Source of the DNA: a virus
IMG/VR virus record: IMGVR_UViG_3300025120_000017
Coordinates: 96,001 to 160,000 of that record
Strand: one strand, 5' to 3'
Length of the DNA stretch: 64,000 nucleotides
Shown: positions 8,095 to 60,428 of the stretch, in pieces
Layout of the letters: every line of letters starts with the position of its first letter
Numbering within the stretch: position 1 is the stretch's first letter
Translations under genes and position numbers: made by a program
Notes under the pieces: model-generated
Told to the model about the DNA's origin: nothing
Seen by the model: only the letters and a program-made list of their open reading frames with translations
The model's database searches: none

Positions 8095-8475
8095 TCATGT
8101 AGTGTATGCAGAGATATATGGAATATCTTCTCTATAATGTGTTGATAATCTAGAATAACCATCAAGAACTTCATCATTAAAAATTACAATAGGATTATCC
8201 AATTCATCATCATGTGGAATTTCATCCCACTCTTCAGAATCTTCTCCATATCTATCTTCACCGCTTTTTATATATTCCTTAACATCTTTATCTTTTCTAA
8301 TTACATCTTTAACTTTAACTTTTTTTAATGTAAATGTCTTATTAGATTTAAGAATTTTTTCTATAAAAAAGTCAGGAACATCGCTACTATCTGGTGTGAT
8401 GTAAGTAATGTAATCAGCAATTTCTTGCGCTGATTTACTTTTAGCCTCATTTAAAAATTTCTTATAACTTTTCAT
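8095..8475 (-). CDS. ParB/Srx-like domain protein with capsid-targeting-like N-terminus
   Basis: N-terminus MKSYKKFLNE; PIVIFNDEVLDGYSRL resembles the ParB/Srx IIDGxHR motif. Confidence 0.6.
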   Translation of the reverse strand: MKSYKKFLNEAKSKSAQEIADYITYITPDSSDVPDFFIEKILKSNKTFTLKKVKVKDVIRKDKDVKEYIKSGEDRYGEDSEEWDEIPHDDELDNPIVIFNDEVLDGYSRLSTHYREDIPYISAYTT

Positions 8476-12325: not shown

Positions 12326-13309
12326 TTATTTAAGTTTAGTTAATAAATCAGACCATAAATCAACTCTTGAAATATCAGGAAAGTTATATCCTGATTTTTT
12401 TCCTCTCATATCTTCAACACCGACTTCTTTTTCAAGATGCTTTATAACCATTTTAGTAATATCTTTATCGTTAAAACGTATAATAGGCTTTTCCATTATA
12501 GGTGAATAAGGACCTCCATACATATTATATTGACCTTCTTGAATAGCAAATATTTCTTTACCAAATTTTGTTTTACCTTTTACTTTAAAAGTGTTGCTGC
12601 TCCACTCTATATAGCCTTCTAATAGATCCAACTCAGCAGCAATTTGACTAGCTGCATCCTCTTCACTACTGTTATATTCTGCCCAAAGGGATCTATCAAT
12701 ATCATACTCTACGTTAATCTCTGCAGGAATCATTATTTTATCTCTTAAAACTCCTTCATTAACTGATTCCATTTTACCAGATGATAGGTCTTTAAGATCT
12801 TTATTAGCATTATCTATGTTTTTACTTTCTCTTTTGAATATTCCAATAAATTTCTTAACAACACTTTTTAAACCTTGTATCATTTTAGAAAGAATATTTT
12901 CATCGATACTTTCAGATTCATTTGTTCCTATTTCAAAAGAATGTCCTATATTGGTTATCTTTTTAGAAGCTGCTAAAGATTCTTCTAATATGTTTCTTGT
13001 TGCTGAATTAACTTTACCTAAAGCCATTTCAAACGCATTCTTATACGAAGCTGAACTTCTCTCATGTGCAAATCTTTTAATCTTTATCAAATAATCATCA
13101 GTTTCTGCTAGCTTTTCACCAGTTTCCTGCATTGAATCCAATAAAGGTGTTATTTGCTTACCATATTCACCAAATTGTTTTTTAGCTTCTTTAAGCTTTG
13201 CTGATAGTTGATTAATCTCTTCTTGTAAAAGATAAAAATCATCCATTGATGCAACAATTGAAGGGTCTTCTATTTTAGATTCTTTTATAAAATTTCGTAA
13301 ACTTTTCAT
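12326..13309 (-). CDS. Putative internal head (poly)protein with capsid-targeting-like N-terminus
   Basis: MKSLRNFIKE start; internal ESESIDE and MESVNE linkers; own late-type promoter. Confidence 0.6.
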   Translation of the reverse strand: MKSLRNFIKESKIEDPSIVASMDDFYLLQEEINQLSAKLKEAKKQFGEYGKQITPLLDSMQETGEKLAETDDYLIKIKRFAHERSSASYKNAFEMALGKVNSATRNILEESLAASKKITNIGHSFEIGTNESESIDENILSKMIQGLKSVVKKFIGIFKRESKNIDNANKDLKDLSSGKMESVNEGVLRDKIMIPAEINVEYDIDRSLWAEYNSSEEDAASQIAAELDLLEGYIEWSSNTFKVKGKTKFGKEIFAIQEGQYNMYGGPYSPIMEKPIIRFNDKDITKMVIKHLEKEVGVEDMRGKKSGYNFPDISRVDLWSDLLTKLK

Positions 13310-52887: not shown

Positions 52888-53236
52888 AATAAAAATAGGA
52901 GATGTCTGGTATGTCAAAGAAGCTAAAGATGATATATCTATTAAAAAAGATTTTGCATATAGCCGAAGCATAACATATGAATGTGATAATTTTATGATTG
53001 AGGCACATGTACTAGAAGATAACGAAAAATTCACTATGCCAACTTTAAAATATGTGGATAAAAAATATCCTGAATGCTCTTGGGTTGCAAGCAACCCAGC
53101 ATATCTTATAGGAGTTGCAGAGCGAAATCCTAAATGGATGACTATTATAAATGCTGAGAGCCCTGAATTAATATCAGCAGTTAAAGAAATAATAGATGAA
53201 ATGAAAGATTCTGGGTGGCTATCAAATAATACTTAA
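52877..53236 (+). CDS. Hypothetical protein
   Basis: 119-aa ORF ending the plus-strand operon, convergent with 53233..53463. Confidence 0.65.
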   Translation: MENRIKIGDVWYVKEAKDDISIKKDFAYSRSITYECDNFMIEAHVLEDNEKFTMPTLKYVDKKYPECSWVASNPAYLIGVAERNPKWMTIINAESPELISAVKEIIDEMKDSGWLSNNT

Positions 53237-53463
53237 TTCTTACTCCCAAAGTTTTTAGGATATGGTCCACCGCCTTCAATGATGTCTAGCATATTAGATT
53301 CTTTATCTGAAATGTGGACCATTTTTTTATTACCTCCGCGAGCAATCCAAGTATTTACAAATTTCTTTGCGGACTTATTACTTATATTTTTAAGAAGACC
53401 TTTAAGATACTGAACAGATACATTTCTTTCTGATTCATTTAAAAACTCTTTATAGCTTTTCAT
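53233..53463 (-). CDS. Putative small internal head protein
   Basis: MKSYKEFLNE closely resembles the T4 internal-protein capsid-targeting sequence MKTYQEFIAE. Confidence 0.7.
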   Translation of the reverse strand: MKSYKEFLNESERNVSVQYLKGLLKNISNKSAKKFVNTWIARGGNKKMVHISDKESNMLDIIEGGGPYPKNFGSKN

Positions 53464-53767: not shown

Positions 53768-54100
53768 TTATTCTTCGCTATCATAATCAGAATCTTCATC
53801 TTCTTCACTATCAGTGCCTTTATCAATATCTTTATTTATACGCTCTTTATCAGCATTTGCATCTTTTTTAATAATATCTTCAACATCACCTTCTTCTTCT
53901 GATGCTTTTGTATCTAATGCACTTCGTAAGCCACTCTTTTCATCCCAAGAGCAATCTATAAATCTCCTACCAAATTTGGATTTAGCCATTTTATCTAATT
54001 CTGCTTTTTCTTTAGGATCCATATCACTATATACTGATTTGCTGGTTGAAGCATTATAATACATAGAACCTGTCTTGTAATATTCTTTTAATGATTTCAT
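53768..54100 (-). CDS. Putative internal head protein with acidic tail
   Basis: MKSLKEYYK N-terminus. Confidence 0.6.
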   Translation of the reverse strand: MKSLKEYYKTGSMYYNASTSKSVYSDMDPKEKAELDKMAKSKFGRRFIDCSWDEKSGLRSALDTKASEEEGDVEDIIKKDANADKERINKDIDKGTDSEEDEDSDYDSEE

Positions 54101-54107
54101 TTAAGAT

Positions 54108-54635
54108 TTAAGCTTTTTTTAATTTTTTATCCTCACCTCTCTTAATAACTTCTCTTGCCATATCAGCATCTGCCTTACCCCATGTACCATCACCTTTAGT
54201 TAAAAATGCGTTAACTCTGGCTAATGCCCATTGTTCTTGACCTGCACCTTTTCTATGGCTTGAGTTCCATGCTGCTAATCCTCGCCTTGCAACTGCTCTT
54301 AATATACCAATATATACACCAGTTTCATCTGACTTATTTTTAAGAGCTTTTTCCATCTTTTGGCTTTTAAGAGGTCCTTCTGAAATCTGCTCTTTATTAT
54401 TCTTATCAGATTCTTTTTCTGCTTCATCAACATTATCACCATATAAATCATGGTAATTTTTTGTATGTTTACTCTTTTTTACCTTTCCTGATTTTCTAGC
54501 AGCTTCATCGCCTGGAGCATCTTTATATGCATCAGGATTACTATCTGATAATTCATCATTCTTTTTAAAAAAATCAGCTCTCTTTTTACTTACTGATTTT
54601 TTCTTTTCATTTAAAAATTCGTTAAGGCTTTTCAT
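54108..54635 (-). CDS. Putative internal head protein with DUF5824-like C-terminal domain
   Basis: Likely start MKSLNEFLNE (ATG 54635); RRGLAAWNSSHRKGAGQEQWALARVNAF. Confidence 0.7.
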   Translation of the reverse strand: MKSLNEFLNEKKKSVSKKRADFFKKNDELSDSNPDAYKDAPGDEAARKSGKVKKSKHTKNYHDLYGDNVDEAEKESDKNNKEQISEGPLKSQKMEKALKNKSDETGVYIGILRAVARRGLAAWNSSHRKGAGQEQWALARVNAFLTKGDGTWGKADADMAREVIKRGEDKKLKKA

Positions 54636-55275
54636 CTTCTTTATCATTTATTTCATAAAAGTATCCTTCGTCAGCAGCCCACTTATGGCCATTTTCACAA
54701 AAGAACTCGTGTGTACTAACTTTAAAGTCAGGTTTTCTTAATTTATTAGGTGTAAGAGATTGGTCATAAAATAAAACTCTGTTATTAGGCTGAGCAGCAA
54801 ATTGACCATTATCCATTTTTAGTATATTAAATGACTTATGCTCATTAGGTGTTTGTGATAAACTAACATTGAGTTCATTTGGATCTGAATGACAACTATC
54901 AATAGTAAAAAGATAATATCCTTTATGCCACTCTTTATCTTTCATATACACTTGGCAATCTATATTTTTTAATATAGTTTTTTCTATAACCGTTATGTTA
55001 TAACTAAAACAATCCCAGATTTGTAGAAAATCTAAAGGTAAAAAATCATTTTGATTAACGTCTTTATCCCAAACAAATGCAGATAAAGGTAACTTATCAT
55101 ATAGAGCACCATACTCAGTTAAATATGCTTCTATGTATAATGCTTTACCTAATATTGATTTGGCGCTTACCCAATAGCATGGTTCATATTCACCATGACC
55201 TTTTTCAAAATCATAAAGATATTCTTTACGTACATAACATTGTATTTGTGGTAAATTAGTTACTAAATAGCTCAT
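54622..55275 (-). CDS. Conserved T4-like phage hypothetical protein
   Basis: YVRKEYLYD..GHGE, GALYDKLPLSAF, GQFAAQPNNR. Confidence 0.8.
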   Translation of the reverse strand: MSYLVTNLPQIQCYVRKEYLYDFEKGHGEYEPCYWVSAKSILGKALYIEAYLTEYGALYDKLPLSAFVWDKDVNQNDFLPLDFLQIWDCFSYNITVIEKTILKNIDCQVYMKDKEWHKGYYLFTIDSCHSDPNELNVSLSQTPNEHKSFNILKMDNGQFAAQPNNRVLFYDQSLTPNKLRKPDFKVSTHEFFCENGHKWAADEGYFYEINDKEDEKP

Positions 55276-56251: not shown

Positions 56252-56623
56252 TTATGCGTCTTTATATTTGAATGTTCTAGGGTAAAAGCTTTTAGCTTGA
56301 TATTCTTTAAACTCACCTTCTTTATTAAAGACAGCATAACCGTCATTTGTAGCAACTAATACAGTTGGCTCAGTATGTAAATTAGAGAAAGCAAGATATT
56401 GTTCTGCTTTGGCTGCTGGTGCAAACATTTTTCGGTTAGCATCCATATATTTCTGTATTTTTTTAACATCAATATAGTCTTTAAGAAGTTTAGCATTCTT
56501 TGCTTTCATCTTTTTAACTTTAGCAGATGTGTTTGGTATTTCGATGATTTCCCACCCTTTAATGTCAACAGCATCTGGTGTAAACTTTTCATCTAATTTA
56601 TAAAATTTATATAATGATTTCAT
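56252..56623 (-). CDS. Putative internal head protein
   Basis: MKSLYKFYKLDE N-terminus. Confidence 0.65.
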   Translation of the reverse strand: MKSLYKFYKLDEKFTPDAVDIKGWEIIEIPNTSAKVKKMKAKNAKLLKDYIDVKKIQKYMDANRKMFAPAAKAEQYLAFSNLHTEPTVLVATNDGYAVFNKEGEFKEYQAKSFYPRTFKYKDA

Positions 56624-57483
56624 TATCTTGATATTTTTTTAATTTTAGAAGAAACTTGTTTAAAATGCTTATCAAATAATTTCTTATATTCTCTGATATA
56701 ATTAGTTTTATCTAATTTAGCTTCAAGGGATTCGATTGAAGTAATTATAGTTGTACCTTCTTCATCATCTTCAATCTCTTCTTCATCAGGATCAAAATCA
56801 GTTTCAGTTAAAGATTCTTCACGTCTTTTAGATTTTTCAGATTTATATTCGTTTTGCCTTTCTTTAGCAATATCTAAATCTTCTTTTATATCATCAAGAA
56901 TTCTACTCTCAGCTGAAAATAATGATTCAATTGCAGTTTCAACTATAGTTCTTTTATTTTCTTTTGTATTATCTAAAACATCTCTTATTACTTCATGATT
57001 ATAATTCTTATCCCAATCATCAAAAGATTCTTCATTAATTTTAGATTTAATCGCTTCAATAATATAATCATTTATGGTAGATGTCATTACTTCATCATGG
57101 TCATCAAAATACGACTCAATCTCCAACTCCAAGTTATCAATAACATCTTCAAGCGCTTCAGGGTAATTTTCCTCTTCAACCGTTTCTTTAATCTTTGGCG
57201 GCTTTGCATACTTCTTTCCTTCATTTATAGATTCATTTACATTCCAAGAAGCTGGTAATAAGTTAACCTTTCCCATTTCTTTAGCTCTTTTGATAACCCA
57301 TGCTTTTGCACGATCTTTATCTTTAGCTCTTCCGTAAGCTCTTATTGCATTTTTAAGATCTTCCTTATTTTCAATAGGAAATGAACCATCAGGTAATGCC
57401 ATTCCTTTATCAGCTAACTCTCTTCGCTGTGCTGTAGAAAACTTTCGCTCTATTATTTTATAATACTCAAAAAGAGATTTCAT
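56623..57483 (-). CDS. Putative internal head polyprotein (basic N-domain plus acidic domain)
   Basis: MKSLFEYYKIIE; PDGSFPI..DLKNAIRAYGR domain; VNESINE linker at about residue 88. Confidence 0.65.
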   Translation of the reverse strand: MKSLFEYYKIIERKFSTAQRRELADKGMALPDGSFPIENKEDLKNAIRAYGRAKDKDRAKAWVIKRAKEMGKVNLLPASWNVNESINEGKKYAKPPKIKETVEEENYPEALEDVIDNLELEIESYFDDHDEVMTSTINDYIIEAIKSKINEESFDDWDKNYNHEVIRDVLDNTKENKRTIVETAIESLFSAESRILDDIKEDLDIAKERQNEYKSEKSKRREESLTETDFDPDEEEIEDDEEGTTIITSIESLEAKLDKTNYIREYKKLFDKHFKQVSSKIKKISR

Positions 57484-57515: not shown

Positions 57516-58718
57516 CTAATTAGATTTATTAACTGGTTTCATACCTGTTCGGCGTTTAACATATTCCATTATTTCAGTATAAGAAACAGATTCAGGATAT
57601 TCAGGTTTTCCAGTAGTAGTTAAAGATTTCTTTTTGAAATCTGCAGTTATTGTAAAGCTTCCTGATGCCGGTGTAATTTTTAAAATATCACCGCTTACTG
57701 ATGCAGTAAATCTTTTAGGCTTTAAAAATGAACTAAAATGTTTAGATTCTTTATTTAAGAAATCTCCAAGAGCTGATGGAGATTTATCATGTTTAGATTC
57801 ATTAACCATTGATTCTTTTAATTTATCATAAAATCCAGAATATTCATCAGCGATGTCTTCACCATAATATTTATCCCATAGTTCAGCTATTTCACTTTTA
57901 GTAATACCTGCTTTATAATTTTTGCTGATGTCATCTATAAAAGATCCATACTCATTAGACATGTCTTCAGCATAAACTTCATCCCACACATTGAAGAGTT
58001 CTTTTATTTTATATTTCTTACCTTCATTAACCTTTGATTCATATGCACTGGTTCTTTTAAGTTTAACATTTTTAAAATATATAGGCAATAAATTATCATA
58101 GTCCCATACATCATAATCAATAATTTCACGCTTCTTTTTATTAATAACTAAGAATGCATTCTTTGTATCATCTCCGTAATCTTCATATCCTGAAACTAAA
58201 ATATGTTTAGGAGTTTCAGCCATTGGATTTTCTATTTGGCTATTATATGCATAAACAAATGTTCCTTTACGTTCATTTCCCCAGTATCTCTGTATTCCAG
58301 TGTCATATTCATCTCCGTCACCAAATTCTCTATTTAAGCCTTTTATATTATTATATCTTTTTTTGGCTTCATTAACATTTGATTCTTTGACTTTAGCATT
58401 TTTAAAATATATAGGCAATAATTTATCATAGCCCCAATGTTGATAATCAATGATATTACCTTTCTTTTTGTTAATGACTATATATACGTTCATTTCATCA
58501 TCCCCGCCTTGGTCAAATCCTGAAACTAAAATATGTTTAGGAGTTTCTGCTATAGGCTCTTCTATTGACCACTTAGACGCATAGATTCCACTATTACCTA
58601 GCCGTAATTTACCTGTGTATTCATCTTCATAGTCAACTTTTATGGTTTTGAGGCCTTCTATATCACTATATCTTTTTTTGGCTTCATTAATTAGTTTATG
58701 CTCGTCTAAACTTCTCAT
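57516..58718 (-). CDS. Putative internal head polyprotein, four modules
   Basis: MRSLDEHKLINE; linkers ESNVNE, ESKVNE, ESMVNE; modules 1 and 2 are paralogous. Confidence 0.7.
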   Translation of the reverse strand: MRSLDEHKLINEAKKRYSDIEGLKTIKVDYEDEYTGKLRLGNSGIYASKWSIEEPIAETPKHILVSGFDQGGDDEMNVYIVINKKKGNIIDYQHWGYDKLLPIYFKNAKVKESNVNEAKKRYNNIKGLNREFGDGDEYDTGIQRYWGNERKGTFVYAYNSQIENPMAETPKHILVSGYEDYGDDTKNAFLVINKKKREIIDYDVWDYDNLLPIYFKNVKLKRTSAYESKVNEGKKYKIKELFNVWDEVYAEDMSNEYGSFIDDISKNYKAGITKSEIAELWDKYYGEDIADEYSGFYDKLKESMVNESKHDKSPSALGDFLNKESKHFSSFLKPKRFTASVSGDILKITPASGSFTITADFKKKSLTTTGKPEYPESVSYTEIMEYVKRRTGMKPVNKSN

Positions 58719-58739: not shown

Positions 58740-59189
58740 TTAATATCTACCACGGTTAGGTCTAAATTTACCAACTTTTCTATCACCTTCTAAGTGTGCA
58801 ATTAATTCAGCCTCAGTTTCAAAATCAGTATATCCTAAAGGACTGGAATGATGTAAGATTGTGTATTGACCATTATCATCTATTCTTGCAAACCAATGTT
58901 CGTCACCAGCATTTATTGTTAATGTATCTCCTATTCTATCTTTATGTTTAGAGACCCGCTTACCTTTAGTTGCTTTACTATTTAAAATATTCTTCATATC
59001 CTTAGATTCTAATACCTTAATGTTTCCATTAATATATTGTCTAATATCATCTAATTTAGCAATAATTTCAAAAGATTTTGATTTATCTAATCCTGACTTT
59101 CTTAATACTTTCTCTACATTATCTATAGATTCATGCAAATCAAAGAATTTAGATTCATTAATTTCTTTATGTTCATTTAATGACTTCAT
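58740..59189 (-). CDS. Putative internal head protein
   Basis: MKSLNEHKEINE N-terminus; first gene after a late motif. Confidence 0.65.
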   Translation of the reverse strand: MKSLNEHKEINESKFFDLHESIDNVEKVLRKSGLDKSKSFEIIAKLDDIRQYINGNIKVLESKDMKNILNSKATKGKRVSKHKDRIGDTLTINAGDEHWFARIDDNGQYTILHHSSPLGYTDFETEAELIAHLEGDRKVGKFRPNRGRY

Positions 59190-59876: not shown

Positions 59877-60428
59877 TTATAATAATTCTATCAATCCTAG
59901 CTTAAACGCCTCATTAACAAGCTTTTCTTGATTATCTCTAATATCTTTAATATCAGCAGCTGTGATAATTCCGCCTTTCATTGCACTATCGCTTTCATTA
60001 TAATTAGATTCAGCAGTTCTAAAGAAACTTCCTGTAAAACTAAGTTCTTCAATATTAGCGGTTTTAAATAATCGCCAAACTTTTTTTGTATTTTTACCTA
60101 ATGACTTACTATTTCCTTTTAAATGAAATGCTCTTAGTAGGTTTTCATCATCTGCGTTTTTACCAAGAACCATAGGTTGAATAGTTCTTTTGGTTTTTAC
60201 ACCATCTTTTTCATAAGTCATTTCAAGAATCATTCCCCATTGTATTGCATCATATAATATCTGTTGATTATATCCAAAGTTTTTACCTACAGGCCAATCT
60301 TTAAAAACTCTATGATTAGTGTTTTTTGGTTTAAATCTAGGTACAAGTATTTTATCACCTTCATTAGTTTCATATACCTCAAACGCTTCAAGTAATAAAT
60401 ACTCTTTATATTCTTTTAAGCTTTTCAT
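59877..60428 (-). CDS. WYL-domain protein with capsid-targeting-like N-terminus
   Basis: MKSLKEYKEYLLLE; LEMTY..KRTIQPMVLG..LLRAF..WRLFKTANI. Confidence 0.7.
   Translation of the reverse strand: MKSLKEYKEYLLLEAFEVYETNEGDKILVPRFKPKNTNHRVFKDWPVGKNFGYNQQILYDAIQWGMILEMTYEKDGVKTKRTIQPMVLGKNADDENLLRAFHLKGNSKSLGKNTKKVWRLFKTANIEELSFTGSFFRTAESNYNESDSAMKGGIITAADIKDIRDNQEKLVNEAFKLGLIELL

Follow-up and report, generated by a model that had tools for sequence, protein, structure and literature searches.

The subject of this analysis is P0001, a protein of 400 amino acids encoded on the minus strand (57516..58718) of a 64,000-nucleotide window of viral DNA, which corresponds to bases 96001-160000 of the 171,834-bp IMG/VR viral contig IMGVR_UViG_3300025120_000017. 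Translation gives a single uninterrupted open reading frame (ORF), which we consider a candidate capsid-targeted cargo polyprotein: a short leader followed by four small modules, which are separated by three linkers of the type ES-x-VNE. In our judgement, P0001 is probably targeted to the capsid and cut at its linkers into four domains injected into the host, the linker serving at the same time as a recombination joint. Its description as a phage polyprotein, proposed by an earlier sequence-only reading of the window, is the best-supported one and is partly supported: the second role of the linker, that of a recombination joint, is shown by comparison of related sequences, and we infer packaging and cleavage at the three internal sites from features of the sequence.

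Architecture of P0001

All the parts of P0001 described here lie on the minus strand. The leader MRSLDEHKLINE occupies residues 1-12 (58683..58718), with a predicted cut after E12, and precedes module 1 (residues 13-111, 58386..58682), which is beta-rich and amounts to about 12 kDa with its linker included. Linker 1 (ESNVNE, residues 112-117, 58368..58385), encoded by GAA TCA AAT GTT AAT GAA, separates this module from its paralog, module 2 (residues 118-226, 58041..58367). Then come linker 2 (ESKVNE, residues 227-232, 58023..58040), an acidic and helical module 3 with an isoelectric point (pI) of 4.4 (residues 233-301, 57816..58022), linker 3 (ESMVNE, residues 302-307, 57798..57815) and a basic alpha/beta module 4 with a pI of 9.8 (residues 308-400, 57519..57797). 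Within the linkers, the cuts are predicted after E117, E232 and E307, and the four pieces would begin with AKKRYS, AKKRYN, GKKYKI and SKHDKS. Translation bore out the positions that had been proposed for the end of the leader (LINE12) and for ESNVNE117, ESKVNE232 and ESMVNE307. The proposed paralogy of the pieces 13-117 and 118-232 holds as well: they share 54% identity (BLASTP, E 6e-34), both present AKKRY directly after NE, and the 30-bp DNA identity noticed between them is exact (30/30 bases), one copy lying in module 2 (58188..58217), where it encodes ETPKHILVSG, and its partner in module 1 (58518-58547). Module 3 is itself a tandem duplication of a helical unit of about 36 amino acids, present in two copies with the pattern W..xYGEDxxxEYxGF. 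P0001 carries in this way four modules of three unrelated types.

The three linkers have in common the DNA word GAATCNNNNGTTAATGAA, that is the 18-nucleotide GAA TCA NNN GTT AAT GAA, which matches three times in the window and zero times in every one of 100 dinucleotide-preserving shuffles. These counts bear on the reading that the arrangement is due to chance or is an assembly artefact, with small genes fused by sequencing errors or with the motif simply recurring in an AT-rich genome. The low-complexity composition of the genome, whose GC content over the contig is about 30%, speaks for such a reading, and nothing more does. Against it stand the absence of the motif in 100/100 shuffles and the reading frame, uninterrupted in at least three independent assemblies that differ in their modules: the P0001 ORF or its variants are complete in L008, L009 and L010. 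Together with the breakpoints at the linkers described below, these observations effectively refute an artefact, to which we give hardly any probability.

The sequence-only reading had also predicted independent domains joined by disordered linkers, and the models came out in favour of this, as did the other proposals of that reading which computation could address. Using AlphaFold2 with an alignment made of a subset of module fragments whose placement was checked, we obtained a predicted local distance difference test score (pLDDT) of about 90 for residues 233-301 and 310-395, module 4 being at 92-98, and a score below 50 at residues 303-308, where linker 3 (ESMVNE) lies between two confident domains. 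The score also fell below 50 over residues 205-231, ahead of module 3. Modelled alone, residues 108-236 gave a predicted template modelling score of 0.71, with the core of module 2 (138-217) at a pLDDT of 77-93, and linker 2 was below 50 in both AlphaFold2 models. Linkers 2 and 3 are found in low-confidence segments between confidently folded domains; linker 1 has a low-to-moderate score and is drawn as a weak helix.

Searches for a known function were carried out at the level of the whole protein and of its modules. Neither Pfam nor PHROG contained a family for P0001 at E<=0.01, and Foldseek found no match to any module in the PDB or BFVD at E<=0.001. VIA-align, run against 48,161 chains, reached a best Z of 5.3 with module 4 and of 4.5 with module 2, both inside the background range, and the ESM Atlas returned generic small-domain matches only.

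The shared leader and the candidate protease motif

The leader of P0001 belongs to a larger set. About 25 ORFs of the contig, whose bodies are mostly unrelated, start with MKS[YL]xxF[LI]NE; a loose regular expression for this leader retrieved 31 of the 208 contig ORFs, a few of them false. The capsid-targeting sequence (CTS) of T4 is MKTYQEFIAE (PMC8442874), in which residues 4 and 7, hydrophobic or aromatic, are involved in targeting and residues 8 (I/L) and 10 (Glu) in processing (PMC9026906), and the conserved positions of the contig leader consensus are precisely these functional positions 4, 7, 8 and 10. An Asp at position 10 of the T4 CTS prevents processing. In P0001 the leader is a 12-residue variant with L4, H7, I10 and E12, which is common to P0001, its upstream neighbour and the related proteins P0002 and P0003. 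A strict DNA pattern for the leader gave 0 matches in Tenacibaculum phage pT24 and in LR756500.1, a result which says little because the pattern was too narrow and caught only 4 of the approximately 25 leaders of its own genome.

Processing of such leaders would require a prohead protease, and the contig, whose completeness is estimated at 67% by CheckV, encodes one. The ORF of this S77 (gp21-type) protease (genome 39345-40979, outside the window) sits between the portal gene (phrog_213, also outside the window) and that of a gp23-type major capsid protein, and the gene order portal, protease, capsid protein is that of T4. The head maturation protease has 544 amino acids and matches PF03420 Peptidase_S77 at 47.1 bits, above the cut-off, and phrog_207 with E 1e-41. 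The capsid protein matches T4 gp23 at E 8e-06 only, and its relatives are found in Lak megaphages, Sphingomonas phage PAU and the Tenacibaculum, Chryseobacterium and Flavobacterium jumbo phages, a lineage called 'group 2.2' in PMC7824862. The source of the contig is most likely an uncultured marine jumbo myophage of this lineage, with probably a Bacteroidota bacterium as host. The P0001 locus is part of a late, structural-looking block and adjoins a neck-protein-like gene; the T4 late promoter TATAAATA was neither enriched in the window (21 matches for 24.8 expected) nor found upstream of the P0001 gene, and gives no indication of timing.

The distribution of the linker motif follows that of the leader. 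Over the whole contig, ES.VNE is confined to proteins with the shared leader. The density of VNE is 2.07 per 1000 amino acids in leader-bearing proteins versus 0.29 in the rest, a difference of about 7 times, and [LIVM]NE[SAGN] is 6 times denser in leader-bearing than in other contig proteins. From sequence alone, the candidate motif is also present where maturation of the capsid protein and of the protease is expected to take place. In the capsid protein, SLNE/N (the slash marks the predicted cut) is found at residue 51, which lies about five positions away from the one that aligns to E65, where T4 gp23 is cut; mature gp23 chains in the PDB lack 65 residues. The protease has VNE/S at residue 161, directly behind its S77 domain, and this site is shared by the 612-residue S77 protease (L005:5936-7774) of L005, a 165-kb relative, which possesses in addition a scaffold-like C-terminal tail with ten further [LIV]NE sites. 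In both proteases a long C-terminal region is fused to the S77 domain (about residues 1-161 of the 544), and because of the ten sites in the relative this region looks like a self-destructing scaffold fused to the enzyme. Considering all its positions, [V/I/L]-N-E is likely the motif of the prohead protease.

The same observations allow one to weigh a reading in which P0001 is not a virion protein at all: its N-terminus would be some other signal, acting for example on translation or on the mRNA at the 5' end of late genes or serving as a tag for some other localisation, and the NE motif a by-product of recombination. The codons of the leader are AT-rich and lysine-rich and could aid translation initiation in a host without Shine-Dalgarno sites, and it is by inference that P0001 is assigned to the capsid. 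We consider this reading highly improbable, as the leader matches the functional positions of the T4 CTS, an S77 protease is present, and the motif lies inside the capsid protein and the protease. The internal copies of the NE motif are moreover no initiation signals, since they sit far from any start codon.

Cassettes in relatives and breakpoints at the linkers

An exhaustive phmmer search gathered 84 metagenomic proteins related to P0001, nearly all of which match module 3 only or module 4 only (57 homologous domains in 54 proteins for module 3, 38 homologs for module 4). We asked how often a projected module edge lies within 4 residues of [LIVMF]NE: module 4 starts there in 26 of 37 cases, where 3.0 are expected, and ends there in 24 of 28 (5.2 expected), and module 3 starts there in 21 of 52 (2.9 expected). 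With the relaxed motif [LIVM][NTSD]E, the starts rise to 28/37 for module 4 and to 35/52 for module 3, and A, S, G or N occupies the position behind the Glu (P1') in 59 of the 64 sites. The relatives contain single modules as well as new combinations of them, bounded by [LIV]NE, which is what the sequence-only reading had suggested looking for. Modules standing alone behind a leader are found in P0082 (module 1/2), in P0066, P0076 and P0092 (module 3) and in P0017 (module 4), and long relatives contain as many as nine or ten cassettes, joined for instance by ESEEVNE, ESEELNE, ESVVNE or ESVVTE. The family of module 1/2 consists of P0002, P0003, P0044 and P0082. In P0044, the homolog of module 2 follows SESLNE/, and the natural C-termini of P0044 and P0082, at ..YF(K), correspond to positions 105-106 of P0001, shortly ahead of linker 1. 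No further homologs of this family came out of a word-index search with module 1, and no significant paralog of the P0001 modules was found elsewhere on the contig.

Comparison with close relatives shows where the cassettes are exchanged. The DNA of L008 and L009 is 96-98% identical to the window, yet the sets of modules differ. Against L008, which encodes P0003, there is no homology upstream of linker 1, and homology is perfect from the GAA TCA of this linker onward. Against L009, which encodes P0002, perfect homology runs to one codon beyond linker 3 and ends there, the last module being different. The leader DNA of P0001 is nearly identical to that of P0003 until about 4 codons past NE and unrelated beyond. 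The module 4 cassette of P0004 (L005:10001-10717) matches that of P0001 from GTT AAT GAA on, with a leader instead of a linker upstream in P0004. Finally, the tail of P0001, ..MKPVNKSN before the stop (residues 394-400, window 57519-57539), compares with ..MEPVNE/SNELNE/ in P0004, which continues into another module. By this homology, V396-N397-K398 in the P0001 tail (57525..57533, minus strand) is a vestigial linker, in which the first Glu codon has become AAA (Lys) and the second a TAG stop. That the linker plus its domain is the unit of duplication, exchange and accretion is shown by this comparison, because homology breaks at linker DNA, the P0004 cassette matches and the tail linker has decayed.

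Would a protein built in this manner also be cleaved at its joints? The main rival explanation, unlikely in our view, is that the leader is cut and the protein otherwise stays in one piece, the ES-x-VNE sequences being flexible joints and recombination sites of an internal protein organised as beads on a string. The breakpoints at linker DNA show a recombination role that needs no cleavage, and this role alone could explain the conservation of linker DNA among close relatives. The T4 internal proteins are cut only once (PMC8442874), and a multi-cut release of folded domains is without direct precedent there. The region of linker 1 is drawn as a low-confidence helix (pLDDT 55-61) and not as a clearly disordered loop. 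These arguments weigh against a cleaved cargo polyprotein, and so do several others. Modules 1 and 2 are only moderately well modelled, and poorly in the joint AlphaFold2 run; a fold or function was recognised for no module by Pfam, PHROGs, Foldseek, VIA-align or the ESM Atlas. The leader of P0001 is 12 residues long, with a His replacing the aromatic residue at position 7. The module 3 homologs P0075, P0078, P0081 and P0089 have neither leader nor site, and tblastn of P0001 against 50,697 phage records gave no match, hence no isolate with the gene. What argues for cleavage is first of all the behaviour of the distant relatives, in which the linker DNA differs yet [V/L/I]-N/T-E followed by a small residue is kept, as in the 59 of 64 sites counted above. 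Because the residues are kept while the DNA differs, selection bears on the peptide and not on the DNA. The same tripeptide also ends every leader, a processing position in T4, and recurs in the capsid protein and the protease where their maturation is expected, and the terminal linker of P0001 has decayed to VNK where nothing follows it.

The variability of the locus has consequences for another explanation, in which P0001 is an accessory core or scaffold protein, comparable to T4 gp22, gp67 and gp68 or to the long propeptides of SPN3US: it would help to build the prohead core and then be cut into pieces that leave the capsid and deliver nothing to the host. Core proteins and propeptides are typically cut more than once (PMC5694885, PMC10052503), and the late, structural-looking block by a neck-protein-like gene would suit an assembly factor. 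The predicted pieces of P0001 are however folded domains of 9-14 kDa according to the models, and not short peptides or coiled coils: unlike scaffold and core proteins, modules 2 and 4 are modelled as alpha/beta or beta-rich domains at a pLDDT reaching 98. Even among phages of 96-98% identity the locus is hypervariable, as one expects of dispensable cargo engaged in an arms race and not of assembly parts, and a scaffold-like function is apparently fused to the protease ORF. We consider it quite improbable that P0001 acts as such a core protein, and retain the cargo polyprotein as the preferred reading.

The neighbouring genes take part in the same exchanges. The upstream neighbour (58740..59189, minus strand) encodes 149 amino acids with the leader MKSLNEHKEINE and is shortened to 70 amino acids in L009. 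L008 does not have its body: homology from upstream ends about 14 codons in, where P0003 starts, and L008 continues from there into different modules. Judging by these alignments, the P0001 locus is a hotspot of gain and loss. The downstream neighbour (56623..57483, minus strand), of 286 amino acids, has the leader MKSLFEYYKIIE and an internal double site ..WNVNE/SINE/GKKY.., and is a candidate second polyprotein; its first module after the leader shows the motif ..ALPDGSFPI..NAIRAYGR.., which precedes the double site. Examples of leader ORFs in the window, these two neighbours included, are found at 8095-8475, 12326-13309, 53233-53463, 53768-54100, 54108-54647, 56252-56623, 56623-57483, 58740-59189 and 59877-60428. 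In the ORF at 54108-54647, the leader MKSLNEFLNE is preceded by MIKK and the protein contains a DUF5824 domain (PF19141, E 3e-11). The adjoining ORF of 217 amino acids (window 54622-55275) is without leader and matches phrog_3704 'ferredoxin' with E 2.9e-94. Further polyprotein-like leader ORFs with internal ..ES(x)VNE/ sites are present on the contig, for example at genome 63761-64744, 64770-65774 and 65787-66515.

Arrays of leader-bearing genes recur on other contigs. In the 165-kb L005, the genes for portal, protease and capsid protein are followed at a distance of two genes by P0004 (leader plus module 4). No head genes were found within the flanks of P0012 and P0007, which contain instead further arrays of leader genes. 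On L013, the contig of P0012, at least six genes with the leader MKHxxTFExF[LV]NE form such an array (L013:129-7063), and a second xVNE or xLNE often follows 5-8 residues on, which makes putative double cut sites. P0016, P0034, P0038 and P0061 have a Cys-rich stretch, ..CxCGGNCxCG.., between the leader and the first predicted cut site, a possible metal-binding propeptide. In many relatives (P0005-P0015, P0020-P0026 and P0030) the first module (ELQKSYxEYF...KKxFFNEI) and the last (...GDWGAAVGKLNKA) stay the same, and the cassettes between them vary; these fixed end modules may have a constant role.

Proposed mechanism and relation to known systems

From these results we can propose a scenario in four steps. 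The leader, as a relative of the T4 CTS, would dock P0001 on the scaffolding core of the prohead. The S77 (gp21-type) protease would then cut after the Glu of [V/I/L]-N-E, both where the leader ends and in each of the three ES-x-VNE linkers. Four folded domains of about 12, 13.6, 8.9 and 10.3 kDa would be freed, retained in the head and brought into the host with the DNA, like the T4 internal proteins; the analogy with T4 Ip1-3 suggests a possible anti-defence role. Finally, as the comparison shows, cassettes are duplicated, swapped, added and lost between genes and phages at GAA TCA NNN GTT AAT GAA, or at least at GTT AAT GAA; under this cassette-joint model, breakpoints would concentrate within about 10 nucleotides of GTTAATGAA. 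Since cassettes are duplicated or swapped at linker codons, one targeting tag could carry a changeable set of domains. A broader version of the model, to which we attach slightly less than an even chance, is that this marine jumbo phage lineage has made the protease site a universal cassette joint, at once cleavage mark and microhomology, and thereby a combinatorial generator of injected mini-proteins; under this version the mini-proteins would be a probable anti-defence arsenal.

The closest known system is that of the T4 internal proteins. IPI, IPII, IPIII and Alt have unrelated bodies behind a leader of about 10 residues, in which the conserved positions (4, 7, 8 and 10) are those of the contig consensus, P0001 itself having the 12-residue variant. 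Both genomes encode an S77 protease of the gp21 type, with (L/I)-x-E as the motif behind whose Glu the T4 enzyme cuts, and in both the loci are hypervariable; the leader-bearing proteins of our contig are likewise unrelated beyond the leader, and their loci vary between 96-98% identical contigs. An anti-restriction role has been described for the T4 proteins (PMC8442874, PMC9026906, PMC12373910, PMC3012670). The differences concern the architecture: a T4 internal protein consists of one domain and undergoes one cut, at its leader, whereas P0001 combines one leader with four domains and three further predicted sites. In addition, P2 is almost always Asn, about 25 genes bear the leader instead of the 4 of T4, cassettes recombine inside genes at the codons of predicted cleavage sites, and the phage belongs to a distant jumbo lineage.

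Several cuts in one polypeptide, predicted here, are known from the phiKZ-like giant phages (PMC5694885, PMC10052503). SPN3US gp53 and gp54 and the phiKZ inner-body proteins resemble the present system by their S77-type protease, the many processed head proteins and the families of paralogs (PMC5694885, PMC10052503). In these phages the extra cuts fall in long N-terminal propeptides, which are removed, the motif is A/S/G-x-E and there is no short leader of the T4 type; P0001 has [VIL]-N-E as its motif, and its pieces, all modelled as folded domains, are shuffled as cassettes. The T4 core proteins gp22, gp67 and gp68 offer another parallel, since the prohead protease cleaves them at many (L/I)-x-E sites (PMC5694885); several cuts are likewise predicted for P0001. 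They are degraded to short peptides which mostly leave the head, and they are conserved assembly parts, not hypervariable folded cassettes.

The polyvalent proteins (Iyer et al. 2017, PMC5512222) also unite several unrelated domains in one polypeptide which is packaged and delivered, as P0001 would be. Their release by proteolysis has been proposed, and the analogy with RNA-virus polyproteins drawn (PMC5512222). They are large, with recognisable enzymatic domains and usually an embedded zincin-like metallopeptidase (PMC5512222), whereas P0001 has no Pfam or PHROG domain, consists of modules of 69-109 residues and would depend for its processing on an enzyme supplied in trans, the prohead protease, and on a fixed linker motif. 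The literature that we searched contains no account of a polyprotein in which a CTS precedes small cassettes joined by sites for the prohead protease.

Among the products of a phage, the proteins injected with its DNA are the first to meet the host defences. Except in T4 and the phiKZ-like phages, such proteins are difficult to identify by sequence. If the proposed reading is true, a leader combined with the [VIL]-N-E linker would provide a simple rule flagging many candidate injected proteins in uncultured marine phages; on this contig the candidate set represents about 12-15% of the genes, to which the leader-gene arrays of the relatives are added. The small modules would form a pool of candidate anti-defence proteins, and the rule of leader plus linker could serve for loading several proteins into engineered capsids. 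The T4 principle of capsid targeting would extend to a distant jumbo lineage, and the polyprotein mode, with one tag for several cargos, would ease any limit set by the targeting sites of the core. Recombination at the codons of the cleavage site would constitute a concrete mechanism for the rapid diversification of the cargo.

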